64,000 nucleotides of DNA from Polypterus senegalus (GCF_016835505.1 NC_053155.1:74724088-74788087); one strand, 5' to 3'; shown: positions 123 to 64,000, counted from the first letter of the stretch. Notes: generated from the sequence alone by a model not told the origin. Numbers and translations are program-made.

Positions 123-1070
123 TCAGTCAACCAGGCAGTTTTGCTGCCATATTTTGGGATAATACATAAGATCCCTCCAGTTAGGATGAAGACCATCTCT
201 TCTGAAAAATCCAGGCCTTTCCCAAAAATCATCCCAATTGTTCACAAATGCTATGCTTTTATTTGCACACCAGGTTTCTAGCCAGCAGTGAAAGGAATGC
301 AATCTACTATAAATCACATCCCCTCTATATAATCTTGGTAAGGGACCAGATACAATTAAATTCCGACATTTTGTTTTAGCTTTGGTGCATAGAGATGAAG
401 TTCGCTTTAATACCTCAGATTGCTGTAAATAAATATCATTAGTGCCGACATGCAGCAATAAGGTAGATACTTCATCGGCAACACGGTCCAATGCGGCCTT
501 TATGCCAGAAATCTTGGCCCCTGCAAGGCACTTAACATTAACTGCTGGTTTAACATAGTTTGGAATTCTAACATTCCGCACTATGGAATCGCCAATTATG
601 AGCACTTTATTATTCTCAGTTTCCACAGGCGCGGAGAGCTCAGAATCTGTTCTGGGTCCGAATTGGTGACCTGAGTGCTGGGGACTAAATTTTGGATTCT
701 TAGACCCCGTCTTACTGTTACCCACTCGCCCTGTGGCTGAATTGGTGCTGCTGATTTCGGCCGCGCACTGACTACAGTGGGACCTGGAGAGACTGAAGCG
801 AATCAGATGTAGCGAATTGTCTAAACAAACCGAGTCGATCCAATTTTCGGTTTGCCTAATCGCTATCAGATTCCTAACGCGGTCCTCCAATTCGCGTATT
901 TTCCCGACCAAATCTAAATTAACTAAACACTTTTGGCAGGTGAAGCTATCTGCACTGTCGGCCGGAAAACCTGAGCTGTACATACTGCAGGACACACAAC
1001 ATATAAACGTGCCCTCGATGGGCAGAGAGCAGATAGAACTTACATTAAATGTTGAAGTCATCTTTGCCAT
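123..1070 (-). CDS. LINE ORF1 protein: N-terminal Cys-rich (PHD/zinc-finger-like) region, coiled-coil, then an SGNH/GDSL-type esterase domain
   Basis: Uninterrupted 948-nt ORF. The Cys cluster is FICCVSCS...CQKC. SGNH hydrolase blocks are present: LIIGDSIVRN (GDS block), HVGTNDI (GxND block) and DGLHPN (DxxH catalytic block). An esterase-plus-PHD ORF1 is an established feature of CR1-like non-LTR retrotransposons. Confidence 0.7.
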   Translation of the reverse strand: MAKMTSTFNVSSICSLPIEGTFICCVSCSMYSSGFPADSADSFTCQKCLVNLDLVGKIRELEDRVRNLIAIRQTENWIDSVCLDNSLHLIRFSLSRSHCSQCAAEISSTNSATGRVGNSKTGSKNPKFSPQHSGHQFGPRTDSELSAPVETENNKVLIIGDSIVRNVRIPNYVKPAVNVKCLAGAKISGIKAALDRVADEVSTLLLHVGTNDIYLQQSEVLKRTSSLCTKAKTKCRNLIVSGPLPRLYRGDVIYSRLHSFHCWLETWCANKSIAFVNNWDDFWERPGFFRRDGLHPNWRDLMYYPKIWQQNCLVD

Positions 1071-4804: not shown

Positions 4805-5810
4805 GTTGCAGCTCTTCTGGCTGAATAAGAGGAGTAGAACTCAGGTCAGGTGTACAGCAGATTACCACCCCCATCACGCAATGAAACAGCTCAGGATCCT
4901 GGTTGGCAACCCTCCAGGCAGACACATGGTCCAGTCCTACCCTCTGGAAATGACCCCTCTATCTGCTGCAGCCAGGTGTTACATGGGCATCCCCTTGGCC
5001 TGGTCCAGCCACTCGGCTCCTCAACAATGAGAATCCTGCAAGCTGGATCACCTTCTGGGAATTGCGCCACATGGCCATTGTACGGTAACTGATGCTCCCT
5101 CATTCGGGACTCCATGAGCAACTACTCATTCGTCACAACCATATAGCAAGACAGTGTCAGGGATGCCAGGGGCAACGACCCGGCCGGGACGCCATGAAGG
5201 ACCGGAAGAGGGCGTGCGCCCACCTTGGACCATGTGGGGGCCGCCAGCCTGGTGATTCTGGTGGCCACGGGTAGGGGGCTTGGAAGCCCAACCCTGTAGG
5301 GGCCCGTGGTCACCGTTAGGGGGTGCCCCGAGGCCTTGGAGGCCCTGGACCTCAGCATTTCCGCCACACCAGGAAGTGCTGGGGGGAAGAGGAGCAGGGA
5401 CACCCAGAGTGCTTCCAGGAGTACAGCCGGCACTTCCGCCACACGGAGGCGTGTCGGTGGAGGATTGCCGGGAAGCACCTGGAGCACATCCGGGTGGAGA
5501 TAAAAGGGGCCGCCTCCCTTCATTCAGGGCTGGAGTCAGGTGGAAGACGGACTAAGCAGGAGAAGAGAGTGTGGAGGTGGCTCGAAGGAAGGCATAGTGT
5601 GTGGCCAGGACTTTGGGGGTTTGTGTGTGCACTTAATAACTTGTAAATAGATTTGTAAATAAACGTGTGGTGGTGGAAAACAACTAGTCTGCCTGTCTGT
5701 GCCCAGGTAACGTTCACAACAGGAAGCACCAGGAATCTGAAGACTTGGACCTTCATCCTTTAGCTTACATATCGGGAGCACCACACACCCCATGCTTTCC
5801 CAATCCATCT
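4805..5810 (-). mobile_element. 3' (C-terminal ORF2) portion of an RTE/Rex3-like LINE, split by insertion of the ~570-bp LTR-like element at 5155-5721
   Basis: The minus-strand translation on both sides of the insertion (MKVQVFRFLVLPV... and LLMESRMREHQLPYNGHVAQFPEGDPACRIL) is collinear with the plus-strand RTE-like copy at 63.7-64.0 kb (KRMKVQVFRVLVLLVLLYVC...ERLLMESQLRH). It matches the RTE C-terminal pattern (..LLYGCETW...IYWP..SN..L...WIGHV.R). Confidence 0.55.
5155..5721 (+). mobile_element. copy 1 of an unclassified ~570-bp GC-rich LTR-like element (family X), plus orientation
   Basis: It starts TGTCAGGGATGCC and ends GTTCACAACA. It contains two tandem ~80-bp units with CCGGAAGTG/CACTTCCGCCACAC motifs, GAGATAAAAGGGGCC (TATA-like) and TGTAAATAAACGTG (AATAAA). 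It is homologous over its full length to copies at 28830-29370, 30705-31278, 53498-53977 and 60181-60759. Confidence 0.65.
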
Positions 5811-7631: not shown

Positions 7632-10271
7632 ATATAATATACAATTATGTGTAATTTGGTTAAATGCAAATGAGTTCCTTAAAGCTTGAAAATTTGTAGT
7701 CTCAAAATTCAAAGTTCCTTGCTTCATATTTTCACTCACACTGGTTACAATGCGGACACACTGAAATGCAGGCAAACAGTGGCAATTAAAACAGAACACA
7801 ATGAAAGTCTAACAATTCATCTATAGCTTAAGGTTCAAGTTTGAAGCCATTGTAAGTTTTCTTTTGACTCGACAACACAGATTTTTATCACTCTTGCCCT
7901 TTTTCTTTTCATCCTGCCTGTGGACACAACCAGTTTCAGTCCCTGTTTTCACTTCTGAGTTAGGTGTGAATTTCAGATTATTTTGTCTCTAGACAACAGA
8001 ACTATAATAAGTCATATAACATTTTAATAGTGCTATTGTTTAAGTAAGCAGTTATTTAAAATGTGTAGGCCTTTAAATTCTATTTTTTTTCAGTTCTCAG
8101 ATATTCACCCTTGTGCAGAAGATGTAGAGGATATCTCATTAAAAATGGTTTGTAAAATGTTTTTTTCTGTTTTACATTTTGATTTTTTCTAAAATCTGGT
8201 TACTTTTATGCATTTACATTGGAATTTCGGTAGTGATACTCTGAATGTTTTTTATGTTTTCTCACTATAAAATAATTACAAATACTGTATCGTACAAGTC
8301 AAAGATGTGCAAACTAAATGCAAAAAATGTACTGTATTGAAACAACCTGAAACATCATACAATAAAGTATTGTAAGAAACATAATGGATGAACTAGCATC
8401 CTAACTGGGGTGGAGTGTGGTGTTGTACCCAGCTGGGAGGCCATTATGGTAGGACAGCATAAATGGAGGAGCACTCTCGCTGGGATGGTTCCTGTTCCAT
8501 TTTCCTGTTGGGCAGAAGAAGTAATGGATGGACTGGGTGATGTTGCCTGTCAAGAACAGTTCATCCTCTAGTATGATAGGTGGTGGTGCATCTCTGACAT
8601 GGCCACAGTTTGGACATTCTCAGGGCTGCATGGAAGTCATAGTCCAGGTGGGCAGCAATTTTGGGGTGCCACCAACAGCACTTCCGGACAAGGACTCCCC
8701 TGTTTCATGGAGGTTCAGCCTGACCCTGAAGTGCTTCCTGAGTACAGTGTTGTTTCAACAGAAGTACTTCCAGGTCTGGCATAAAAGAAGCCTCCTCACC
8801 TCACTCTAGAATTTGAATGTAGGAGAAAGTGGACAAAATCCTCCTTTAGAGGAGTGGAGGAGGAGGAGACAAGAATTGTTATATTGATTGCAGGGCTATT
8901 TCTGGGCATAGGCTGTCTAGGCAAGGGCTTAGGGCACCCTCTAGTAGTTAAGGCAAATTACTGCAGCCCCCTGTAGAAATTTCTGTCTGTATTTTCTTAA
9001 GAAAACTTTGTCAGGACTGGACTGGAACACAAAGAAATGTTTATGTTTTGTGCCTCAGCAGCGCCTGCACAGTCTGCACTGTGCACACCACAGTTAGTGT
9101 GCTGTTGTATATACAGCACTAGTGCAGACAGCGTGCCAGGCATCTCATGTGACTTGTGTTCTCCTTGCTACCTGTGAACTGCACACGTCACAGTGAGGCA
9201 TTACTGCTTGCAGTTAGCCCCTGCCAGGACCAGGAGTTAATGCTCATCCCCTGATCTTCCCATGTAAGGCGCAGCCTGCTAGATGGACATAGAATTTGAT
9301 TCCAGTCCATGCCTCTTCCTCTTCAAGCACTTTGCCACAGGGTGAGTGGCGGCTGACCCGGGTGCAGTCCAGACTCTGGTGAGTGACAGAGTCCAGGAAG
9401 CTTCCTCCTGTCATAACTTCCACCCACTTAGCTTGTTCCTCAGGACGGGAGGTACTAAGGTGAAAGAGTATGTCTCAGGAGAGAAGTTTCTTGGAGGCAG
9501 GAGCACTGGCACTGCAGCAGAAACATCGTGGCCACTAGGAATTGTGTGTTTGTCTGTGTGTGTTCAGTCTGCAATGGACTGGCACTGTGTTCCAATGTCT
9601 ATGTGGATTTTTTCTCCATATTTCTTCCACATTACAAGGACACATTGTGTTGTTTAACAGTGTGTTTGCTTGTGTCAGTGAGCCATGTGATGGGTTGCCT
9701 CCCAACCCTGCTTTTTTCCAGGGATTCCAATGTGGGCTCCATCCCTCCCCTTTTTTTTCTATTCCGTTTATACCATTTGCGTAGGCCTAAGTCTTGTCAG
9801 TGTGTTAAGCAGTACACACAGAAAGCATTCATAACCAAAGCCAGCCAGTGGTCTGTGTCCCTTCCCTGCTTTTGATCTCTCCTATTATCCCTTTACTAAG
9901 AGGGAGTCCATCTTTTTCAGACTATACTATTTCCTCAGCAATTTTCTCTTTCTGTACTCTTCTGCTGAATTCTGTATTCTGAGGGTAAGCACATATGAAG
10001 TCAAGAATGTACTTTTTTTTTTATTGGTATAATTTTTTATTTTATTTTATTACGTGTGGATTCCTTTTGAAAACAGTAAATTTAGAGATATTTGTACTGA
10101 TAATCTTGCTTACAAAGGTTTGCATAGGGAGAGAAAAATATAAACTTTAACAATGTCTATTTTGATAATAAAAATAAAAACGTATTTCTAATGAACTCAC
10201 CTCTGACTAGAAGCAGACAATCAGGTCAGAGAATTGTTTACAAAACAGTTGTGAAACTACATCTTTGAATT

Positions 10272-22384: not shown

Positions 22385-22784
22385 TAATTGAAGTGCTCTT
22401 GGTGCACTGGCTATCTTGACCAGGTATCATCAGGGTGTGTAGATGTTTGGAGGAGGAAAGGTTACAAAGGGCATCAACTCAAAAATCTCAGGGATTGAGC
22501 AAATCATCATTTTTGATGCCCCAGTTTATCTGAAGTTCTGGGGGGATTAGGGGTTGTCAAGTGTGGTATGTGGGCTCCAGCAGAGTTGAGCTTCCATGCT
22601 CCAAACCCGTGACCTTGCTGCAACCCAGGGGGGCTGCCCTCTAGCATTCCAGGGGAGGTAATGCCTTGAATATGCTCTCTCCTTCCATTATAAGATCGTC
22701 CCAGGCAGGCAAGGGCACCAGCCATCCAGCACAGAGCACAGTATGCTTAAGTAAAGTAGCTTCATTTCACACATTTATATTCTG

Positions 22785-39298: not shown

Positions 39299-39378
<80 letters not shown>

Positions 39379-39380
39379 TA
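39299..39380. repeat. (TA)~40 microsatellite
   Basis: Direct read. Confidence 0.95.
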
Positions 39381-46081: not shown

Positions 46082-49000
46082 TTTTTTTTTTTTTTTTAAT
46101 TTTATTAATTTTATTGTACTCATTCCATACAAATAAATCAATTTTTACAAAAAAAAAATAGGATGAAAACAACTTAACCCCCACCCATGAGAGAGAGAGC
46201 ATGGCCAACGGAGTAAAACTTAAAGCTTGTAAACATACCTAAATTGATTAGTTTAAAAGGGCATGAATGGAGAAGAAAAAGAAATGTGGAAAGAATTGCT
46301 TCCTCTGTGCTTTAAGAGCTTATTCTAAATTATTATTGATTAGATCCTGCAAATTCTGCACTGATCCTCTAACTGAGAATTAGATTTTTTCCAATTTCAA
46401 ACAGTGTAACACATCAGTTTTCCACTGACTTAAAAGAGGAGAGTTAGGATTCTTCCAGTTTAGCAAGACAAGTCTGCGTGCCAAAGTGTAGTGAATGCAA
46501 TCACAGTTTGTTTGTCCTTCTCCACTTTAAGCCCATCTGGAAGAACCCCAAACACAGCTGTTAATGGGTTAGGAGGGATTGTGACACCAAGGCTGTCTGA
46601 AAGGTAATTAAAAATTTTGGTCCAAAATTATGTTAATTTGCTGCAGGCCCAAAACATGTGACCCAGTGAGGCTGGAACTTGATTGCACCGTTCGCAAGTT
46701 GGCTCTTGCCCTGGGAACATTTTGGACAGTTTTAAGTGAGACAGATGTGCTCAATATATAATTTTAAGTTGAATAATTGTATGCTTTGTGCATATGGAGC
46801 TCAAGTGAATTCTCTGCATTGCTACCTTCCACTCCTTTTCTGATATATTGATTAAGAGACCTTTTCCCCATTGTCCTCTTGAATCTTTGAAAGGCAGGGA
46901 CTGTAAAATAATTTTATATATTGCAGAGATGGTGTCTAAGTCCTCGAAATTGAGCAATATTTTTTCCAGCATGGAGGAGGGTGCAAGATGAGGAAAATCA
47001 GGCAGGTTTTGTTTAACAAAGTTCCTAATTTGAAGATAGTGAAAGAAATGTGTAGCTGGAAAGTTAAATTTGGTAATTGTTCATAGGATGCAAAGATGTT
47101 GTCTATATAAAGATCTCTAAGCAATTAATCCCAAATTTTTCCAGATATAAAAAACTGCATATGTTTGCGAGGGTTGAAAGAGGTGGTTCTCTTGCAGAGG
47201 TGCCACAGATAAAAGATTCTCCATCTTAAAATGCTTTCTACATTGGTTCCATATTCTGAGTGAGTGAAGCACAAATGGATTACAGTATTAGTAAAATGGC
47301 GATAACTTAAATTTGTTGGGGCACACAGCAGGGAATATAAAGAAGTACTGCAGGATTTTACTTCTATTGCGGACCAAGCCTATGTATGTTCATCTATTTG
47401 TGTCCAGGTTTTTATAGCTTGTATGTTTGCTGCCCAGTAATAAAATTCAAAGTTAGGTAGAGCCATGCCACCTTCTGCCTTAGGTCTTTGTAGGGTCGCT
47501 CTTTGGATACGTGGATGTTTTGAGTTCCAAATAAATGAGGTTATTGTTGAATCTAATTGCTTAAAAATGATTTATTGATGTATATTGGAATGTTTTGAAA
47601 TAAAAAAGGAGCTTAGGAAGAATATTCATCTTAACAGTGTTAATTCTTCCAGCTAGAGTGAGATGAAGGGTTGACCATCTATGCAAGTCTTGCTTAATTT
47701 TTTCCATGCAGATGGCAAAATTTTGTTGATAAAGAGCTTTGTGTTTACTTGCGATACTTACCCATAGGTATTTAAACTGATCTGCAATGATAAAAGGTAG
47801 GGTGTCTAATCTAATATTATATGCTTGAGAATTCACTGGAAAGAGTACACTTTTATTCAGATTAATTCTGAGACCAGAGATCTTTTGAAATTCTGTGAGT
47901 GCTGTTAAGACTGCAGGCACAGAATTTTGTGGGTCTGATATATACAGTACCATATCATCTGCATATAGAGAAATTTTCTGTTCCAGTCCCTCTCTGATAA
48001 TCCCCTTTATCTGATAAGCATTTCGACAGTGAATTGCCAGGGTTTCAATGGCGATTGCAAATAGCAGTGGTGACAAGGGACATCCTTGTCTGGTACCACG
48101 TTCTAGTTTAAAGTAGTCTGAACAAATGTTAATAATAAACTGAAGCTTCTGGATTGGTATACAGTAGTTTGATCCATGCACAAATGTTCGGGCCAAACCC
48201 AAATTTCTCTAATGTAGTAAAAAGGTATTTCCATTCAATCATGTCAAATGCTTTTTCTGCATCCAATGATAATATTTCTGGGGTGTTTGATTTAGTTGGT
48301 GAGTATATTACATTAAACAGGCGTCAAAGATTTGAAGATAAGTGTTGACCCTTGATAAATCCAGTTTAATCTTGTGATATTATCGAAGGCAGCACTTTCT
48401 CCATCCTTCTAGCTATGATTTTTTAGAGTATTTTAACATCATTATTCAAAAGTGAAATTGGTCTGTATGATGCACATTGTAATAAGTCCTTATTTTGTTT
48501 AGGAAAGACGGTGATTAATGCTTGGCGAAAAGTTTGAGGAAATTTGATTGTCTCTGGCTTCTGTAAATGTTGCTAATAGGAGGGGAGCTAGCTGAGTGGA
48601 GAATTTCTTATAAAATTCTGCAGGGTAGCCATCAGGGCCTGCTGCTTTCCGCCTTGAAGTGACTTTATAGCATCTAGTAATTCTGATAGCCAGAGGTTTA
48701 TCAGTTCCTCCGCACTAAAAGTATCTATTTGTGGTATCTGTAATGTATCCAGAAATGCATTAGATTGTGTGTTGTCTTCTTTAAACTCAGTAGAATATAA
48801 GGATTTATAGTAGTCTCTAAATGTATACATTATTTTTATGGTCAATGATTTTATCTCCGTTCATGTTGGTGATTACTAGGATTGCATCTTGCTTATGGAT
48901 TTGTTGAGCTAAAAGCTTATTAGCTTTCTCTCCGTGTTCATAGTAATGATGTCTGATTTATAAATTAGTTGTTCAGTTTCTTTAGTTGTCAGAAGGTTGA

Positions 49001-51900
49001 GTTCTGAATGTAGAGCCTGCCTTTTCCTATGTAGAGCCTCGCTTGGATGCCTGGCATCTATTTTAGTAATTTCCTTTTAGCTCTGATACTTTCTTGGTTT
49101 CTAACTTATTTCTTGTGGAAAGATATGAAATAATCTGTCCTCTTAAGAAGGCCTTGAGAGTTTCCCCAGAGTATTCCTGCAGACACCTCTGAGGATGTAT
49201 TTGTCTCTAGGAAGAAACTGATTTGTTTGGATATAAATTCTGTACAGTTCTCGTCTGCTAATAGAAGCGGGTTAAGACGCCATCTGCAAGGTGAGAGTGT
49301 TGGGCATAATGATTTAGCTCCAAGATCAGAGGTGCATGGTCGGAGATAACAATAGTCGTATTTGCAAGATTTAATCGTAGGCAAGAAATTATTATCTATA
49401 AAGAAATAATCAGTTCTTGAGTAGCAATGATGTACTGGTGAGTAGAACGAATATGTTCTTGAGTTTGGGTTTAGAAACCTCCAGGGGTCTGATAAGTTGT
49501 GGTCAGTTACAAACTGTATAATTGTCTGTTAGATGTCATCCCCCCTGTGACAGGAGTCCTATCTAAGAGTGGGTTTAAAACACAATTAAAGTCCCCAGCC
49601 ATTATAATTTTATGAGTGTTCACATTGGGAATGGATGCAAATACATTTTGTATGAATTCCTTATCATATATTAGGTACATAAACATTTATCAAAATCATT
49701 TTACAGTTAAATAAGTTGCCCATGACAATCACATATCTTCCTTCAGGATCAGATACTACATCTGATGCTACAAATGAGACTGTTCTATGTATGAAAATTC
49801 CCACATCTCTAGTTTTCTTTGTAAAGCTAGAATGGAACATTTGGCCAGTCCAGTCTTTTTGCAGCTGGAACTGATTCTTGCTTAGTAAGTGGGTCTCCTG
49901 TAAAAATACTATTTTAGCATTTAGACCGGTTAGGTGAGAGAGTACTTTCTTTCTCTTTAATTTGTGATTCAGGCCTCTAACATTCCAGCTCACAAAGTTA
50001 ACTGTCCCATCATGGAGACATTGATTCTGAATTTTTGATGTCACTTTATTGTCTTAACTGGAAGTGCGACAGCTTTAACCTTAATTTCCAGTTTCCCCAC
50101 GAGCTATTGCCATACAGCCTATTGTTACGTTGATAGCTGTAATTATAAGGGTTAAAAAGATAGATAAGATATAGCCTGCTCTCTTTCTTTCCCCGCCCAT
50201 TTTGCCTCCCCACGTGAGGCTGGGCCTCACTTCACACAGTCCCGGTCCTCTGACATACCCAGAGACAGAGCACATCCAAAGCAAAACAAGCCCCCACGCA
50301 GCGGCGTTTTAGGATTAAAAAGCAGAGATAGCTATTGCCAATATAGTCTAAATACTATATGCCTAAATATGATCATTAACAAACTATAAGCATAAAATAT
50401 AATCTTCAGCAATCTTAAAGTATTAAGATAATAAAAACCCAGGGAATGGTGTTAAAAAGTGGTCCAGAATAAGCATAGTAAATCTGAATGCAATAATAAC
50501 AGTAACGATAAACCAAGGGTATGATGTTAAACAGTCTCCTTTAGGGCAGTAAAAAAAAAAAAAAACTATTAATTTCTTCCACACACGTCTATAACTGTAA
50601 GCAAAACATAAACAGAAAGCGTCCGAGTAATGAAAAGAATGTATAATTATAATATCCGTATCAATACAAGTGGATCAGACAACAGGTGATATCTACAGTA
50701 ATTGCCATGCCATGACAGGATGTGACTCACTATTGTGTTTCAAAAAAGTGTCGGGATCAGCTTCCTTAATTCCTTTTCTGCTTCTTTCTTGCTGGCGAAG
50801 ACATAGAATTGACCGTGCAATTCCACTTTCAGTTTGGCAGGATACAAGAGGCTGTAATTGATATCAGCTTGATGTAACCGCTGTTTAATGTTGTAGAAGG
50901 CTGCACGTGTAGCAGCTGTTGCCGGAGGGAAATCAGGGAAAATACAAATGTGGTTATTTTCAAATATAATCTCTTGCTTGTGTCTGAGACATGCCATCAC
51001 ATCTAGCTTAAATAATAATTTCTCAAAGCGGACAATAAAAGACCTAGGTCTAAAGGTATTAGATCCGCGTATGTGATAAGCTGCTGCTATCTCAGTATCT
51101 GATTTAAATTCTTCTCCAGTTATTTTATAGAAAAGTTCAACTGCAAATTTTACTGGGTTTGGACTTTCACGATTCTCAGGTAGACCTTCGATTCTAATAT
51201 TATTCCTTCTGCATCCATCTTCCAGAGCAGGATGTCTGTCTCAGAGTTTCTTGCATTCAGAATTCGCTGCTGTAGCTTTTCCATCGGCGTTAGATACTAG
51301 TTGTTCTGCTGTTTCAATTCTCATCCAACTGGTCAGCAAGTTTCTTCAGTTTAGACGTATTTTCTTGAATGTGTTCCTCAATTTTCCCCAGCATACCTTT
51401 AAAGGTTGCGGCAAAACGATTGTATAGACGTATTTCCAGTTCTTGAATGTCTTTCTTAAGCTCACTTATGGCTGTGGCCGATGTTGTGATCATTTCCTTC
51501 AGTTCGGAGAAATCATTTCGGTTTTCGTGCTCCGCAGGTGGAGTGGCAACCCCGGTTATAGCCGATGTTTCAGGCTCACAAGGAATGAATGCAAGCACGG
51601 ATGGCAAGGCCATTTCTGGCTTCATGTGATCTACTGGAATCTGCGAGCTCTCGTGACCTGCATCACTTGCACCTTTGCTCCCATTTTGACTCCCATTTTC
51701 GCTCTCGACTGGAGAATTTGCAGTGGAGCGGGGTCCTGGGAAGTGTGTGCATTCGCCTGCCTGTTCCAGGTCAGTCTCTAAAAGGCCGTACCTCGCACTT
51801 GGGCTTGGACTTGATGTATGTCTAGTCTTGGATGTAGCTTTAAGTTTCTTTTCCAGTTCTTTCTGACCCCCTTTCTTATTCTCATATTTATATATTGTAG
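46082..51900 (-). mobile_element. L1-clade LINE, near full-length, on the minus strand (ORF1 + ORF2 with multiple frameshifts; poly-A tail seen as T16 at 46082-46097)
   Basis: Minus-strand ORFs give an L1 ORF1p coiled-coil (51314-51625: ...ISELKKDIQELEIRLYNRF...) and an RRM/CTD (50740-51000: FPDFPPATAATRAAFYNIKQRLHQADINYSLLYPAKLKVELHGQFYVFASKKEAEKEL). The APE-type endonuclease is at 49664-50044 (VSWNVRGLNHKLKRKKVLSHL...IVFLQETHL). L1 RT is at 47561-48202 (RGTRQGCPLSPLLFAIAIETLA...LYADDMVLYISDP...LTEFQKISGLRINLNKS). The Cys-rich C-terminal region is around 46750-46970. The 5' limit is approximate. Confidence 0.7.
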
Positions 51901-52374
51901 TGGAAACCCTTCATGTCGGGTAAATACAGGATACCTCAAAATAATAAGAAATAATTAAAAAAAATAAAGCCGCTGCTAACGGAGCTCCGCTTCAGACGTC
52001 CATCTCCCGTAATGGACGAGACCTTTATAGGGCAGAGGGCAGCACCTTGACAGTCGAGGGATGTGGGGGACCACCCACAAAACACATGGGCTTGTTGTAA
52101 AAGATTTAAAATGTCTCAAATTTTTAAATATTAACATAAATGGAAGAATCAAAAATAAATAAAACAGACATAAAAGAGGAATTGGAACCTCAGATATGGG
52201 GGGAGTTTGACTGAAACATACGTAACAGGTCTGGGTGCCAGTTCACTTCAGAGCCCCATCATGCACACTCCTGCTCACATGAAAGCTAGTTTGAAATCAC
52301 CAGCTGACCATTCGTGCCCCTGTTTGACAACGTGGTAAACCTCGCCAGTGGAAAATCCACACAAACCCAGGCAC

Positions 52375-52475: not shown

Positions 52476-53497
52476 CAGTAACCATTTAATAAGTCTGTAA
52501 GTGTTCTTTTTAGTTTGATTGTCTAGGGTGAATTCAAACATTTCCTTATTCTGTTCCTTAAACTGGAACAAGGAGTACATCTGGTAAGCCAGTTTGTGAT
52601 TTCTAGTAATGCACGCTCGTTTATAGAGAGTGCCAGTGTGTTGCATGTTGGTTGGGTTTTCAACTGTACTCTAAAGTGTCAATATGAATGCTGTTAACGA
52701 GAGTCCGACCATTGATCTGTCATGGACTTTGATGTGTAAGAAAACTCCAAGACAGCGTGCTACTAAAAACAGCACAATACCTTATGGTGCTGACAATTTA
52801 CAAAACTTCTTAAGACTAGCCTTCAAAAGACACATCATCTTTACAAAGGTTTACTGCAAGACAGCAAATACATTTTTAAAACAGGATGTACAGAAGAATA
52901 CACCATAAAGAAGTGAAACAAAGTGTAATCTTTACATGACCGGGAAGAAAACAACATAAGACAAAACACATTGGTAACCTGCCAGGTTTCTTAGCTTTGT
53001 CTTTTGGCATAAAGTGATAAATTAAAGCTAGAAAGGACCAGAGTTTTGTGGAATTTGTTTTCTTTGTCAATTAATATTTGCTGCATATTCATTTTCAGTT
53101 CTTGGCATCTTGTGGAACAGGTGGATGGCTCTTGTTATTCTTTTCATGAATAATGATGAGAAGCATCTTAGAAATGCTGCAGTCTTGCTGATAGCAAAGT
53201 GAACATCCTCCTCAATTCTTGGCAAGGACAAGTCAGCAGGCCAGAACTAGGGTGGGATTGTGTTGTGAGCTCCTTAAATGTATGTTTTTTGTTAAGTCGA
53301 TAAGATTCATTTTAAAGTGTGCTCAGCTCATATGGTCTGCCCTCAGGTGTAAATCAGCAGAGTCCTATTTAGTTCTTTATCTTATTCAGCAAGTTAAGGA
53401 TTCCTTTTCAACCAGAATTGTCATATAAGGAGCCAGGAAGCAGTTATTCTCCAGTTGTGTGCCAGCTGACTGACTAGTCAAAGATGGTTTTATGGAC

Positions 53498-53977
53498 TGT
53501 GTGGCAGACAACCAGGGTCCATGCCCGGCCGAGGAGGCCCCTTCAGTATTTGTTCAGGGGGAGCAGCCATGGACTTTGCAATACCTCCCCCGAACACTAG
53601 ATGGCAACTCCCCTGGGTTGGAGCGGTGCCTCGGTTTCCCGCAGGGCTTCATGGGAATTGGAATTGGGTGCAGCCCTGTTGGGTCCCGTAGGCACCGCCA
53701 GGGGGTGCTGCAGCTGGGACTCCTGAGGCCTTATGGGCAGCGTATTCACACACCCGGGTGGACTATAAAAGGGCCCAGCAACCACCACTCAATGGCCGGA
53801 GTCGGGAGGAGGAGTGGTGGTTAAAGGAGAAGACTGTAGTGTTTTGTGTTGTGCTTGTGGGACGAGCGGAAAACGTCCCCCCACAGGTGAAGAAATATAA
53901 ATGTTTATTTGTTTTTATACGTGCCTCCGGTGAGAGTCTGTGTCGGTCAGGCGCCAATATAGCGCCTTTGTTACAAC
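53498..53977 (+). mobile_element. family X LTR-like element, copy 4 (variant lacking the tandem ETS-motif units)
   Basis: TGTGTGGCAGACAACCAGGGTCCATGCCCGGCCGAGGAGG...CCCGTAGGCACCGCCAGGGGGTGC...CACCCGGGTGGACTATAAAAGGGCCCAGC...GGAGTCGGGAGGAGGAGTGG...GTTACAAC is collinear with copy 1 (TGTCAGGGATGCCAGGGGCAACGACCCGGCCGGGACGCC...CCCGTGGTCACCGTTAGGGGGTGCC...CATCCGGGTGGAGATAAAAGGGGCC...GGAGTCAGGTGGAAGACGG...GTTCACAACA). Confidence 0.5.
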
Positions 53978-55329
53978 TGATAGAGCTGTTTAAATATAAT
54001 GCATACCCCAATCCACAGAAATCTTATGAATGTACACTGGGCTACCAGCTTCAGTCAAACAGTGTGGCCCAGTGGCTAAGGAACCGGACTATAAATCACG
54101 TGGGGATTCAACCAGCACCCTTATGGCTTTAAGATCTACTCTGCTGCATTGAGTCAGATTAACATTTTATAGGCCACAAACACAGCCCTGCAGTTCTCAT
54201 CCCAGCACAAGACAGAAGCTCCTGGGAAAGCATACTAAAAAAGCCATGGAAGACAAGATGTCAAATGGATTTGCTGGAAATTTCCAGTGCTAAATGTTCA
54301 GTTTCATAAAAAAAAGATGATTCCCTTGTTCACAAAATGCCCGTTTTGTCCAAGAAAAAGACTCATTTTTGCAGACTTGCTTCTGTTGTTAGGCAGAAAG
54401 AGGCTCAGGCCAAACAAAAGTCAAGCCACTGATGTACAATGGAGAGGACATCACTGAGTTCTGCCAAGTCCTGTCTGCCTGAAGAAGCATCACATTGGTG
54501 TAAAGTGCCTGTTTTCTGTTCTCCCGTATTCCAAATTTATTTCTGCTCTCCTCAGTTTTATACTTTCCCCCTACATTGTCTTGGAAATCTGAAGTAAAGG
54601 CTTAAAGTGCAGCTTTAAAAATGTGTCGTTTGTCATTTTATAACCATCACAGAGCTTGTATCACCCATATGCACGTTATATATATTCCTCCCTCGTTTTT
54701 CCAGTTTTATTTAACTTTTAAGCAGTTTCAGCGAATAACCTGAAATGGTACAAAGGTAAGTGGTAAACTGCCAGAGTGTTGAAAAAATGTAAGCTGCCGA
54801 AAAATGAAAAATAATGTACACATGATTTCAAAATGACTATATACAAAAAGTTTGTATTCATACAATTCATACAGGTCTTCTGCAGCAGTTGAGGTTCATT
54901 AAGCCTTAAATGTTGATGCAAACAATTCCTACGGGTGTCCCATTTTTTGTTGATTACTTACAAATCCTCAGTCTGTATAAAGGCAATGTTGGATCAAACT
55001 GCACTGCTAAGCCCTCTGAATTGTTATGTGGACATCATAATGGTGAGAACAAGGAAATTAACAAAGAAGTCAGAACATAAAATGTCTAGCCATTCAACAG
55101 CACCCTACTTCACGAAAAGCAGTAATCAAAAATGTTTGAAGATGTTTTCTTATGATTTAATTTTGTTAAAAAGATTACTTAATCTGGCATTCGATGTCAC
55201 TGTTTTCACATTTTTGGAGCATGTCAATGATTTGCCTGTTCACACAATGGGTTCATGTCTTGCTGTCATACTCTGCATTCCCCTGTAATCCTGAACTAGA
55301 ATGAGCAGGCTGGGTAATAGATGGAGGAA

Positions 55330-58206
55330 TGCACGTTCTGTTCTAAATGCTGGTGCTCCTGCTTGAACTTGGCACATGACCAGTAATCTCCTCGTTGATC
55401 GTAAGTTTGATTTCCTCTGTTTAGTTGAGACTTGGCAAAAACCTAATGACTTTTCTGAACTCAATGAATCCACTCCGCCGGGATTTGTTTACATCTGTCA
55501 ACCTCGTGGCACTGGCCGCGGAGGAGGTCTCGCGATGTTATACCGCGAGAAGTGGAACGTTTTGCCGATGTCTGTCCCTGCTTTCAACTCGTTTGAATGT
55601 ACTGTATGCAAGTTACCTGGATTTTCGCCTACCGTCATCGCTGCTGTTTATCGTCCACCTAAACCGAATAGTGACTTTTTAAATGACTTTGCTGCTTTCC
55701 TTGCTCAGCTTGTCATTGTCTCCCCTAATATTATTTTGCTGGGTGACTTCAATATTCATATGGACAATGTAAATAACCCTCTTACTAGAGACTTTATGTC
55801 CTGCCTGGAGAACTTTGGGCTCCAACAGTTCACCAAGGTCCCCACTCATTCAAAAGGACACATTTTGGACTTAATTTGTTGCTCTGGTGTCTCTTCTCTC
55901 GATCATACAACTGATGAACTGCCTTTCTCTGACCACTCTCTCCTCTCTTTTAATCTTCAACTCTCTATATCTATCCCGGCTACCCCAAGACAATAACTTT
56001 TCGCAATATCAAGAACATTAATTTGGACTCTGTTCGATCCAGTATTGAATCACATATTGCCACTTCTAACTTAACTACCGCTGATGAGTTGATTTTGCAT
56101 TATAACACCAGCCTTCATCATATTCTGGATTCTCTTGCCCCTTTTAAAACAAAGTCTGTTTCATTTTCCCTCTCTGCCCCTGGTTTACGCGAACTTCGTC
56201 TCATGAAAGCGAAAGGCCGGCAATTAGAGCGACTTTATAAAAAACTGGGCTCGGGTTCACAAAGATATGTATTTCCACCATCTTTCACATTATAAGGATT
56301 GTATTAATCAAACTAAATCTGCCTACTATTCTAATATAATCAGCATGAATGAAGGCAACACTAAATCATTGTTCTCACTCCTCAAACGTGTCACCCAACC
56401 CCCTGATTTGTGGCCATCACATCTCTACTCTTATGCCTTTTGTAATTCTCTGATGTCATTTTTTATGAACAAAATCGAGAGTATCCACCACTACCTTGCT
56501 TTGCAATCCGCTCACACTACTCCTTCTGAATTCTTCCCATCTACTCACCCTTTTTCTTTCTTTCAACTTCCCCACCTTAGAAATATCAGATATAATCCTT
56601 CATTCTAAGTCATCCACCTGTCTGCTTGACCCCTTACCTACATCACTTGTCAAAGCCTGCCTTCCATCTCTGCTCCATATTATATCTGCTATTATCCATT
56701 CTTCTCTTTCAACTGGAATTGTTCCTGCTTCATTCAAAACTGCTGTAGTAACCCCAATTTAAAAAAATCGGCCGATCCATCTAATTTTAACAACCTGCGT
56801 CCGATCTCTAACCTACCTTTCTTATCCAAAATCCTAGAAAAAATGGTAGCCAAACAGCTCCACTCTCACTTATCCCTGAATAACCTGTATGAACAATTCC
56901 AGTCTGGTTTCCGACTCCATAGTACAGAAACTGCATTAATCAAAATAACTAACGATCTTCTCATGGCAGCAGACTCCGCTTACTCTCTATCCTCATACTA
57001 CTTGATTTGAGTGCGGCTTTTGACTCCATTTCTCATTCCATTCTTCTCAATAGACTATCTTCCATTGGTGTCACCCACAATGTCTATAACTGGTTCACAT
57101 CCTACCTTTCTGGCCGCTCCCAATTCATACAGCTCAAATCATTTTCATCTCACTCTGTATCCGTTACCTCAGGAGTGCCACAAGACTCTGTCATGGGCCC
57201 CCTTCTGTTCACCATCTATCTCCTTCCTCTGGGCAATATCTTCAGGAAATATAATATTCATTTTCACTGTTATGCAGATGACACCCAGCTTTATTTTTCA
57301 ACTTCACCCACAATCACCCTCCCACCTACCACCCTTACTGACTGTCTGGCCGAAATCAAAAACTGGTTTACATTTAATTTTCTTAAACTCAACAGTGATA
57401 AAACAGAGATCCTTCTTATTGGTACAAAATCCACATTATCCAAATCCCATAACTTCCCTATTATAATTGATAACTGTACTCTATCCCTCCTCTCAGGCCA
57501 AAAGTCTTGGTGTCATCTTGGATAATAACCTCTCCTTTCTTTCACACATCAATACTATTACACGATCTGCCTACTTCCACCTACGTAATATCAACCGTCT
57601 CCGCCCTCTCTCACCCCCCACTCTTGTTCATAGCCTTGTCACCTCTCGCCTTGACTATTGTAACTCTCTTCTTTTTGGTCTCCCTCAAAAAACTCTTCAC
57701 AAACTTCAATTAGTCCAGAACTCAGCCGTCCGTATTATCACAAGATCTCCTTCTACTCACCACATCACTCCTGTTCTGCATCAACTTCACTGGCTCCCTG
57801 TCAAGTTCCGCATCGAGTTTAAAATCCTTCTGCTAACCTTTAAAGCTATTCATGATTTAGCCCCCCCCATACCTGTCTAACCTTCTCCACATTGTCACCC
57901 CTTCCCGTACTCTTAGATCATCCTCCTCAATTAAATTGACTGTTCCTTCCGCTCGTCTTTCCACAATGGGGAACAGAGCTTTCAGTCGTTCTGCCCCCCG
58001 ACTTTGGAATGCACTGCCTCCTGAGATTAGAAACATTAATTCATTCTCTCTGTTTAAGTCTTCAGTTAAAACTCATCTTTTTAAACTTGCCTTCTCTATG
58101 TAAACACTGTACTGTATTGTGTGTTGGGTGTTGTGTAAAGTGTACGGTGTCCTTGAGTGTTTGAAAGGCGCCTATAAATAAAATGTATTATTATTATTAT
58201 TATTAA
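55330..58206 (+). mobile_element. L2-clade LINE (ORF2 endonuclease plus RT, frameshifted) with an L2-type 3' tail ending in (TTA)n
   Basis: The APE-like EN ORF 55376-55996 reads ..LCLVETWQKPND...GGGLAMLYREKW...LLGDFNIHMD...VPTHSKGHILDL. RT blocks are [88 protein letters not shown]...[25 protein letters not shown] and [12 protein letters not shown], which match the fish L2 consensus ([15 protein letters not shown]...G..G.AL.WF.SYL..R.Q.V......VPQGSVLGP.LF.IY.LPLG.I....[11 protein letters not shown]). The tail is ..gtgtccttgagtgtttgaaaggcgcctataaataaaatgtattattattattattaatgg. Confidence 0.7.
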
Positions 58207-60180: not shown

Positions 60181-60759
60181 TTGTGGACTTGAACCCGGAC
60201 ACAGGCGGACATCGTAAGTTCACCCAACACACGTTTATTTACAGTTATATCTACAAATTAGTGCACACAAACCCCAGTGCCACTTGCACCGATCCCCCAA
60301 AGTCCAGGCCACACAGTCCTTCGTGCCTCTCTCTCTTGGCCGCCTCTAGTCCTCTCTCAGCTCTGTCCACTTCCACCCGACTTCCGCTATCGACTGAAGG
60401 GAGGCGGCCCCTTAAATAGGAACCCGGATGGGCTCCAGCTGCTTCCCGGCATTCCTCCGCAGACACGCCCCAGTGTGGCAGAAGTGCCGGCTGCACACCC
60501 GGAAGCCATCCGGGTGTCCCCTGTCATCTTCCCCCCAGCACTTCTTGGTGTGGCGGAAGTGCTGGGCTCCGGGGATATCTAGGCGCCAGGGCGCCACCTG
60601 GCGGTGGCCACGGGTCCCTGCAGGGCTGGGCTTCCAAGCCCTTTACCTGAGGCCCCCAACATAACCAGGGCGGACGCCACTTCGCGGTCTGGAGGAGGCA
60701 CAAGCCCTCCTCCGTCCTCCCTGCGCCCCGCCGGGCTACAGCCCCGGCTGGATGCCACA
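60181..60759 (-). mobile_element. family X LTR-like element, copy 3 (minus), flanked by TA-rich sequence on both sides
   Basis: The reverse complement is collinear with copy 1 (..GGCTTGGAAGCCCAGCCCTGCAGGGACCCGTGGCCACCG...CACTTCCGCCACACCAAGAAGTGCTGGGG...CACTTCTGCCACACTGGGGCGTG...CCTATTTAAGGGGCCGCCTCCC...CTGTAAATAAACGTG...GTTCAAGTCCACAA). The flanks are tctatatatat|TGTGG... and ...CCACAA|tatataatatatatatatatatat. Confidence 0.6.
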
Positions 60760-60785
60760 ATATATAATATATATATATATATATT
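60760..60785. repeat. (TA)n microsatellite abutting family X copy 3
   Basis: tatataatatatatatatatatat is read directly. Confidence 0.9.
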
Positions 60786-62199: not shown

Positions 62200-64000
62200 G
62201 CGACTCCTAGAGTTATGGGTGCAGCACAGATTCCACTTGCAGACATTCAGCCTAAAAGGAAATTCTGACTTCTCCTGCACAGAGGACAGTAAATCCTTGA
62301 CCTGCATATATCAAGTGCAACATAAGGACGAGACAAGACATTCCACGTGCCTACCTGGATGGGCCGCCTCTAATTGGGACCTGAGTGCTGCCATGCAGCG
62401 GGCAACGCCTCAGCACCACACCAGTTCTGATCCCCGACGGGCCTGACCCCACTGGCTCTCGGACGGTTTTGACTCCTCTGGTGATGGGGCTCCCGAGGGC
62501 TTTCCCCCATCCTCTTCATAATGCAGACAGCCTTCCTATGGTCAGCTGCAGCAGAGCTACTCCCATGGAGAGTAGAAAGGAGTCCCCTCTTTAGTCTCAA
62601 ATCTGCATGAAGTTTTTTTTATGGTGACTAGGGTGCCAATCCTGCCACCAACCCCATTAATTTCTCTGTAAGTTGGAGGACTACTTGCAGGGCCAGATGC
62701 AGTTTAATGTCATACCAGGACTCCAACTAGCTGTGAACTACCCAATCTCACTGAGATTGCACAGGTGGTGAACCAGCTGAGGGCAGGGACAGCTGAAGGG
62801 ATCTGTGGTAGCCGAGGTGAACTTCTCCAGGCTGGCGGTAAGGCTGTCCTCCTGGCCATGTAAGCAATATTTGCTTCCAACTGGGTGACTGGCATCATCC
62901 CAACTTATCATCCCTATCTGGAAAGGGACGGGTGATTGCATGAATTGCAGCAACTACAGGGGGATAAAACTGCTCTCAGTGCTGGGTAAGATCCTTGCTA
63001 GGATCATCATCAGTAGGATCCGTGATCACTTGCTCACCTACCAGTGACTGGAACAGTCTGATTTTACGCATAAGAAATCTACCATTGACCGCATCCTGCC
63101 CATGAGGGTTCTCATGGAGTGCAAACGCGGATATCATCAGAATTTCTTTGCAGCCTTTGTCGATTTTTGCAAAGCGTTTGACTCAGTTGACCGAGCTGCC
63201 CTGTGGGACATCCTGAGACTTCGCGGGATCCCCTCGAGGTTGCTGGATATCATGGCCGGCCTGTACACTGGTACTGTGAGTGCTGTGCAGAATGGAGGCA
63301 GGACCTCTGCGTTTTTCCCAGCTGATTCTGGGGTTTGTCAGGGGTGTGTTCTTGCTCCTACTTTGTTCAATATTTGTATGGAATGGGTGTTGGGCAAGGT
63401 CATGGGGTCCAGTGGCTGTGGGGCATCTGTTGGTGAAGAAAGGTTCACGGATCTTGACTTTGCTGACGATGCTGTGATCTTCGCGGTGTCAATGGTGGCT
63501 CTGATCGGTGCTCTTGAGAGCCTGAGCGAGGAGTCTGAGTGTCTGGGCTTGCGAGTGTACTGAGTAAAAACCAAGATCCAGGCCTTTAATGACCTCTTGG
63601 GTACAGCCATCAGCAGTGTGTCTGTTTGCGGAGAAAGTGTTAACCTTGTTGAGAGGTTTACTTACCTTGGCAGTGACATTCATGTCTCTGGTGACTCTTC
63701 CTGTGAAGTCAGTAGATGGATTGGAAGAGCATGGGGGGTCATAAGGTCGCTGGAAAGGGGTGTTTGGTGCTCCCGATATCTATGCAAAAGGATGAAGGTC
63801 CAAGTCTTTAGAGTCCTGGTGCTTCTTGTCTTGTTATATGTTTGCTAGACATGGGTGATATGCAGTTACCTTAGATGAAGACTGGACTCCTTTGGTGCTG
63901 TGTCTCTTTGGAGAATCCTTAGGTACTACTGGTTGGACTTTGTGTCGAATGAGCGGTTGCTCATGGAGTCCCAATTGAGGCACATTACCTGCATTGTGAG
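62200..64000 (+). mobile_element. RTE/Rex3-like LINE (RT region, frameshifted upstream of 63.1 kb), continuing beyond the window end
   Basis: 62900-63100 translates to ..NYRGIKLLSVLGKILARIIISRIRDHL...DFTHKKSTIDRILPMRVLMECKRGYHQ, followed by ORF 63102-63563 (FAAFVDFCKAFDSVDRAALWDILRLRGIPSRLLDIM...GVCQGCVLAPTLFNICMEWVLGKV...FTDLDFADDAVIFA) and FTYLGSDIHVSGDSS...KRMKVQVFRVLVLLVLLYVC.TW...ERLLMESQLRH. This matches the RTE pattern (W.GITLLSV..K......R.....QAGFR.GRS..D.IF.LR...E; FIDFKKAFDSV.R..LW.IL...GIP.K; DLDFADD; EF.YLG; KIRIFRSNV..VLLYGCETW). The 5' limit is uncertain. Confidence 0.6.

Follow-up and report, generated by a model that had tools for sequence, protein, structure and literature searches.

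Five GC-rich repeats in a Polypterus senegalus genomic window are very probably solo LTRs of old retrovirus-like insertions

We analysed one stretch of 64,000 nucleotides of Polypterus senegalus DNA (the window), in which an earlier note had recognized five GC-rich repeats and read them as probable solo long terminal repeats (LTRs). Our analysis upholds that reading. The five repeats are very probably solo LTRs of old retrovirus-like insertions, most likely of the ERV1 or class I type (gamma- or epsilon-retrovirus-like). All five have TGT...ACA ends and an exact 4-bp target-site duplication (TSD), an unoccupied version of the target site of copy 1 is present in the window, and neither a primer-binding site nor a polypurine tract adjoins any copy. 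Each copy stands alone as a discrete insertion, with ends of the LTR type and a duplication that is 4 bp throughout.

Results

Five LTR copies and three fragments belong to related subfamilies

The copies and fragments of the family are as follows.

5155-5718, plus strand: LTR copy 1, family A
28833-29370, minus strand: LTR copy 2, family A; 84% identity to copy 1, with a 29-bp deletion relative to copies 1 and 5
30705-31276, plus strand: LTR copy 3, divergent subfamily; 48% GC
53500-53975, plus strand: LTR copy 4, divergent subfamily
60182-60759, minus strand: LTR copy 5, family A; 77% identity to copies 1 and 2
27805-28190, minus strand: LTR fragment f6, resembling copy 4; without the first ~80 bp, retaining GGCTATAAAGGGAGCC and the ...CACA end
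22572-22733, minus strand: LTR fragment f7, the 5' ~160 bp of a related LTR only; its start is ambiguous, 22733 or 22727
about 8540-8900, plus strand: LTR fragment f8, strongly diverged and old (profile E 4e-6), with uncertain limits

The places and orientations of the five copies agree with those given earlier. Their limits needed trimming by 2-4 nt, the last bases, A(C/T)A, being part of the target-site duplication. Profile searches of the window recovered, besides the five copies, the three fragments that had been missed; the oldest of them, f8, contains ACTTCC/GGAAGT motifs and GGCATAAAAGAAGCC. LTR debris of this one ERV-like superfamily comes to ~3.6 kb, or 5.7% of the window.

BLASTN comparisons show that copies 1, 2 and 5 are clearly related: copy 1 matches copy 2 at 79% over 572 bp (E 4e-141) and copy 5 at 73% over 526 bp (E 4e-78), and copies 2 and 5 match at 71% (E 3e-63). 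Aligned globally, these three copies are 84, 77 and 77% identical. Global identity of copies 3 and 4 to every other copy is 62-72%, and their BLASTN matches are limited to blocks of 38-69 bp (E 1e-4 to 3e-6), the match between copies 3 and 4 having an E-value of 3e-6. A profile built from copies 1, 2 and 5 finds copy 4 at E 3e-7 and copy 3 at E 0.08 only. The description of the five as mutually homologous therefore holds only transitively. By the BLASTN scores, global identities and profile E-values, the five copies make up one superfamily with at least three subfamilies, namely A (copies 1, 2 and 5), copy 3 and copy 4.

What connects copies 3 and 4 to family A is a conserved block of ~40 bp, along with the profile hits. 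In family A the 5' end is variable for ~100 bp and is followed by the well-conserved block AGCCCAGCCCTGTAGGGnCCCGTGGnCACCGCCAGGGGG, which is the sole stretch recognizable across all five copies. A 19-nt degenerate pattern taken from the conserved block occurs once per copy and nowhere else in the window, with 0 occurrences expected in shuffles, a result that is circular in that the pattern was derived from the same copies.

Copy 4 does not have the block of GGAAGT boxes found in family A, as had been reported, and on that basis it had been called a natural deletion variant. This interpretation does not survive comparison with f6, the nearest match of copy 4 outside itself. Because f6 is also without the block, its absence from copy 4 is a subfamily trait and not a private deletion.

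G+C content of the copies is 56-62% (48% in copy 3) vs 39.5% in the window, confirming that the family is more GC-rich than its surroundings. The window looks eukaryotic, has a CpG observed/expected ratio of 0.35 and contains (TA)n microsatellites and many LINE fragments; in the LTR copies the ratio is 0.5-0.6. Kimura two-parameter distances within family A range from 0.20 to 0.43, and copies 1 and 2 differ by 63 transitions and 27 transversions. These distances, the excess of transitions and the CpG depletion fit old, neutrally decaying copies that came from more than one source element.

Termini and target-site duplications mark each copy as an insertion

We read the junctions of all five copies base by base. 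Every copy starts with TGT and ends with ACA; the end is CACA in four copies and TACA in copy 4. The start motif TGT(C/G)A(G/A)(G/A)GATG is present in copies 1 to 3, whereas copies 4 and 5 begin TGTGGCA. The proposed 3' motif, GTTCACAA(C/T)A, extends into the first bases of the duplication.

Target-site duplications and the unoccupied site are as follows.

5151-5154 and 5719-5722: TSD of copy 1, ACAG
29371-29374 and 28829-28832: TSD of copy 2, ATAC
Copy 3: TSD ATAT on either side
53496-53499 and 53976-53979: TSD of copy 4, ACTG
Copy 5: TSD ATAT on either side, at the edge of a (TA)n tract
63757-63844, minus strand: paralogous unoccupied target site of copy 1, in a second copy of its host repeat

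An exact 4-bp direct repeat flanks each of the five. Three of these repeats, ACAG, ATAC and ACTG (copies 1, 2 and 4), have non-repetitive surroundings, and on both sides the match breaks off at the next base; the chance of three exact 4-mers at predefined positions is about (1/256)^3. The ATAT duplications of copies 3 and 5 sit in (TA)n and are uninformative. Mapping of the duplications, which the earlier note had put forward as a check, thus gave a consistent length of 4 bp together with TGT...ACA termini in five of five window copies. BLASTN and reading of the flanks show that the copies are dispersed, occur in both orientations and have unrelated flanks.

The flanks of copy 1, minus the LTR and one ACAG, align unbroken across the junction to the site at 63757-63844 (89.8% over 88 bp). 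The empty site reads CAAG-ACAA-GAAGCACC, and the occupied site CAAG-ACAG-LTR-ACAG-GAAGCACC. The paralogous site, which reads straight across the junction, shows independently that copy 1 was inserted, that its ends are precisely those given above and that 4 bp were duplicated.

The internal layout of the copies is consistent with that of an LTR

Three regions can be proposed for copy 1.

About 5155-5529, plus strand: putative U3, with the GCAYTTCCGCCACAC boxes and the TATA-like box
About 5530-5680, plus strand: putative R, with AATAAA at 5658
About 5681-5718, plus strand: putative U5

Family A carries two GCAYTTCCRCCACAC boxes with GGAAGT cores, 75-76 bp apart, and CAGGAAGTGCTGGGGGG follows the first of them. 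The GCAYTTCCGCCACAC boxes of copy 1 are located at 5355 and 5430. They had been described as a block of tandem ETS units. The GGAAGT boxes are indeed there, but Tandem Repeats Finder detects no array in copy 1, which has two boxes of 15-28 nt with a spacing of 75-76 bp. These units appear to be an old, decayed 75-bp duplication. The 3.6 kb of LTR sequence contains GGAAGT or ACTTCC 14 times, where shuffles predict 1.7; the remainder of the window has 0.48 per kb. The copies are related, however, so that the counts are not independent. The motif recurs at non-homologous positions in copy 3 and in f8; the cores are ETS-type by sequence only.

Downstream of the boxes lies a TATA-like element, ATAAAAG at 5500 in copy 1. 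The TATA-like boxes quoted earlier were found as described, GATAAAAGGGGCC in copies 1 and 2 and TATTTAAGGGGCC in copy 5. Copies 3 and 5 have a TATTTAA box, and copy 4 has, as had been claimed, the best box among the copies, TATAAAA at 53764. In family A, TGTAAATAAACGTGTG follows ~158 bp downstream of the TATA-like box, with a GT-rich run immediately after it, and a tail of ~55 bp after AATAAA ends in CACA. The AATAAA signal attributed to the family is present in copies 1 (5658), 2 (28893) and 5 (60239); copy 3 has ATTAAA instead (31192) and copy 4 no canonical signal. The positions of the TATA-like box, AATAAA and the GT-rich stretch are conserved in copies 1, 2 and 5 despite 16-23% divergence.

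This arrangement is consistent with a U3-R-U5 layout. The predicted U3 of ~375 bp would hold the duplicated 75-bp enhancer-like unit with its ETS-type GGAAGT cores and the TATA-like box. R would span ~150 nt, from about 28 nt past the TATA box to about 20 nt past AATAAA, with a GT-rich downstream element, and U5 would take up the last ~40 nt, ending in CA, its border being predicted. RNA folding of the putative R region reveals no notable structure vs shuffles (z = +0.8).

No internal region or coding sequence accompanies the copies

The earlier note reported that no primer-binding site, gag or pol follows any copy, and we agree: there is no TGG-type primer-binding site and no retroviral Pfam domain. 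The search for a purine tract preceding each of the five copies likewise gave no adjoining polypurine tract. Nowhere in the window do two LTRs enclose a primer-binding site and gag-pol, as they would in a full-length element.

We examined 300 stop-to-stop frames of at least 60 aa across the window with Pfam. Gag, retroviral protease, integrase, RNase H and Env are absent from these frames. The domains that were found are RVT_1 (six segments), AP-endonuclease, the mariner helix-turn-helix (HTH_48) and an ORF1 esterase, and two marginal hits, vMSA (E 5e-4) and She9_MDM33 (E 8e-4), were taken as chance. Four of the six RVT_1 segments contain the catalytic motif, as YADD, FADD or FVDD after GxRQGCPLSP-like contexts, and are LINE-type. 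A regular-expression search of all six frames for the retroviral motifs YxDD, LPQG, DTGA, CCHC and HHCC returned one spurious HHCC only.

Open reading frames inside the LTRs had been dismissed as by-products of composition, and our results support this. They match no Pfam family, and the 173-aa frame spanning copy 2 has 0 relatives among 5.8 billion proteins. Rfam gave nothing, either for the whole window at gathering thresholds or for copy 1 at E up to 1, and ARAGORN found no tRNA-like sequence. Two conserved LTR patterns had 0 hits in viral contigs. One conserved pattern matched two loci in metagenome contigs, where the BLASTN matches are just 22-31 bp and were treated as chance.

Three copies lie in or at the edge of (TA)n tracts

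Perfect (TA)n accounts for 285 bp, or 0.45%, of the window, and copies 2, 3 and 5 are found within such tracts or at their borders. Copy 3 splits a microsatellite of ~84 TA units into 30612-30704 and 31277-31351. Copy 2 sits in imperfect (TA)n (28818-28828), beside a 5'-truncated LINE, and the tract beside copy 5 is at 60767-60784. A (TA)n tract at 39299-39380 is unoccupied and served as a control. The duplications or flanks are ATAC, ATAT and ATAT, plus GTAT for f6. It is possible, if doubtful, that the ERV lineage favoured (TA)n when integrating, or alternating purine/pyrimidine sequence in general. Any such preference would be a matter of degree and not of kind and, with five insertions, is a lead only.

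Other elements of the window

Besides the LTR copies, we noted the following features.

123-1070, minus strand: intact 315-aa LINE ORF1 with a GDSL/SGNH esterase domain, of CR1/L2-type ORF1 architecture
47564-51910, minus strand: LINE remnant, L1-like, with a YADD reverse transcriptase (RT) and an ORF1-like frame
55367-58000, plus strand: LINE remnant, L2/CR1-like, with AP-endonuclease and RT
63048-63560, plus strand: LINE remnant with a FADD-type RT
28190-28200, minus strand: junction of f6 with the middle of a LINE RT domain (...FVDDVGLLASS)
29378-29780: GC-rich block beside copy 2, with ...TTGCTGGGGA units about 77 bp apart
30267-30406: palindrome of 140 bp between copies 2 and 3
30545-30600: short (TGAGTSAG)n-like tract with 8-bp periodicity, adjoining the (TA)n that hosts copy 3

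The best match of the intact ORF1 is an Erpetoichthys calabaricus protein (78% identity), with more distant matches in other ray-finned fishes. By this one repeat-encoded protein the host would very probably be a polypterid, Erpetoichthys or Polypterus, the match not separating the two genera. GC skew is strongly negative at 56-58 kb, within the remnant at 55367-58000. Fragment f6 runs straight into the RT domain; since neither an LTR 5' end nor a LINE 3' end is present, the junction points to a deletion or rearrangement rather than to a simple nested insertion. The GC-rich block beside copy 2 is not homologous to the LTR family. Its 126-aa ORF has no Pfam hit, and the pooled ORF scan gave only LINE, mariner and esterase domains and the marginal vMSA. 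The palindrome has 70-nt arms that are 89% complementary, without a spacer, and (TA)7 at its centre. A foldback or MITE-like element could account for it, and so could an inverted duplication.

Discussion

Origin of the solo LTRs

The copies combine TG...CA ends, a TSD of fixed length, dispersal among unrelated flanks and a TATA box upstream of a poly(A) signal, the last in variant form in copies 3 and 4. On established retroelement biology, a provirus would have integrated at each site, its integrase making a 4-bp staggered cut, and recombination between the two identical LTRs would later have deleted the interior, leaving a single LTR between the original duplications. Solo LTRs are the product of recombination between an element's two LTRs (PMC7599744; PMC6298018). 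We considered whether copies 2 and 3 could be the two LTRs of one provirus and rejected it: they are in opposite orientations, belong to different subfamilies and have each their own TSD. Several observations count against the solo-LTR and ERV1 reading, namely the short predicted U5 of ~40 nt, the lack of a canonical poly(A) signal in copy 4 and the ATTAAA of copy 3, the uninformative ATAT duplications of two copies, the unremarkable folding of the putative R, and the weak homology of copy 3 to family A (E 0.08).

Curators of vertebrate repeats treat a 4-bp TSD as the signature of ERV1, the rule for solo LTRs with TG...CA ends being 4 bp for ERV1, 6 bp for ERV2 and 5 bp for ERV3 (PMC6523648), and class I ERVs are reported as the commonest ERVs in ray-finned fishes (PMC7599744). 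Because the duplications in the window are 4 bp long, we would place the copies in the ERV1 type (class I), the link to retroviruses drawing on TSD length and LTR layout. The assignment is provisional because the window copies have no internal region and because a duplication of 4 bp is known from some Gypsy and BEL elements too.

The strongest competitor is a different parent, in which the same LTR-LTR recombination acted on a non-retroviral LTR retrotransposon (Ty3/Gypsy, BEL/Pao or Copia). We consider this unlikely. TGT...ACA ends and TSDs of 4-6 bp occur in those groups too, the window copies have no internal region that would decide the parent, and the ATAC and ATAT targets resemble those of Drosophila gypsy, which prefers alternating purine/pyrimidine TA-rich sites and makes a 4-bp TSD. 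Against it stand the curation rule for 4-bp duplications and the fact that Gypsy, Copia and BEL elements of fish mostly have 5-bp TSDs, and an LTR of ~570 bp with a TATA box, an R of ~150 nt and AATAAA followed by a GT-rich element is typically retroviral.

Readings that do without an LTR parent fare much worse. The earlier note had offered, as an alternative, that the repeats are the 5' promoter or UTR module of a non-LTR retroposon (LINE). What speaks for it is copy 2, which ends at 28833 on the minus strand, with an RVT_1 domain starting at about 28743 on the same strand (E 1e-19). That reverse transcriptase, however, belongs to a 5'-truncated LINE fragment (FVDD) that begins in the middle of ORF2 and lacks an upstream endonuclease domain. 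Between it and copy 2 stand the TSD ATAC and (TA)n, and copy 2 has its own TSD on both sides. The other four copies have no LINE sequence after them. All five are full length and their ends are fixed, unlike the 5' ends of LINEs, where truncation varies, and the copies carry neither a 3' A-tail nor a microsatellite tail of their own. Fixed ends, a constant 4-bp TSD and the single LINE neighbour lead us to abandon the promoter-module alternative, to which we give hardly any credence. It is just as improbable that the repeats are non-autonomous, MITE-like DNA transposons with short terminal inverted repeats (TIRs). TGTG...CACA ends do form an inverted repeat of 3-7 nt and the TSD length is fixed, but the inverted termini reach only 3 nt in copies 1, 2 and 4, 5 nt in copy 5 and 7 of 8 positions in copy 3, short of the ~10 bp by which a TIR is recognized. 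There are neither extended TIRs nor subterminal repeats, the interior is directional, with TATA and then AATAAA, and to our knowledge a 4-bp TSD of variable sequence matches no common vertebrate TIR superfamily. The sole transposase signal in the window is the mariner HTH_48, and ORFs of the LTRs match no transposase family in Pfam. A SINE reading was also tried and set aside: ARAGORN found no tRNA-like sequence, Rfam no match, and the CACA ends carry no tail.

Comparison with known LTRs

Returning to solo LTRs of retroviral type as the preferred origin, we compared the copies with known systems. In the murine leukaemia virus LTR, U3 contains a direct repeat of a ~75-bp enhancer, in which there are ETS-type GGAA sites, and then a TATA box; R contains AATAAA, and the TSD is 4 bp. 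The window copies likewise have a 75-bp-spaced repeat with GGAA cores, a TATA box, AATAAA and a 4-bp TSD. Unlike those of the virus, the 75-bp units here are strongly diverged, with only a box of 15-28 nt recognizable; the predicted R is longer (~150 nt) and the predicted U5 shorter (~40 nt), and there is no detectable sequence similarity. ERV1 solo LTRs of vertebrates (Repbase/Dfam) share with the copies the TG...CA ends, the 4-bp TSD, a length of 0.45-0.6 kb and the U3-R-U5 order with TATA and AATAAA, and there too solo LTRs, dispersed in either orientation, make up most of the surviving copies. They differ in that three of the five copies here lie in (TA)n and that the family is known here from its LTRs alone. 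In size the LTRs are also comparable to those of ZFERV of zebrafish and other epsilon-like ERVs of fish; the host here is a polypterid and not a teleost.

Significance

The families are probably unnamed or annotated by machine only, and belong to an ordinary class of vertebrate repeats. The value of the finding is mainly one of annotation: GC-rich ORFs within pieces of these LTRs should not be called genes. Such LTRs carry promoter, enhancer and poly(A) signals, here predicted, that nearby genes can co-opt. ERVs of polypterids are little described, and consensus sequences of these families would enrich repeat libraries in a small but useful way. The association with (TA)n is their sole unusual trait. 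If it were true genome-wide, it would represent an unusually sharp sequence- or structure-directed choice of target for a vertebrate retrovirus, and the family could be a natural record of an integrase preference for flexible or non-B DNA.
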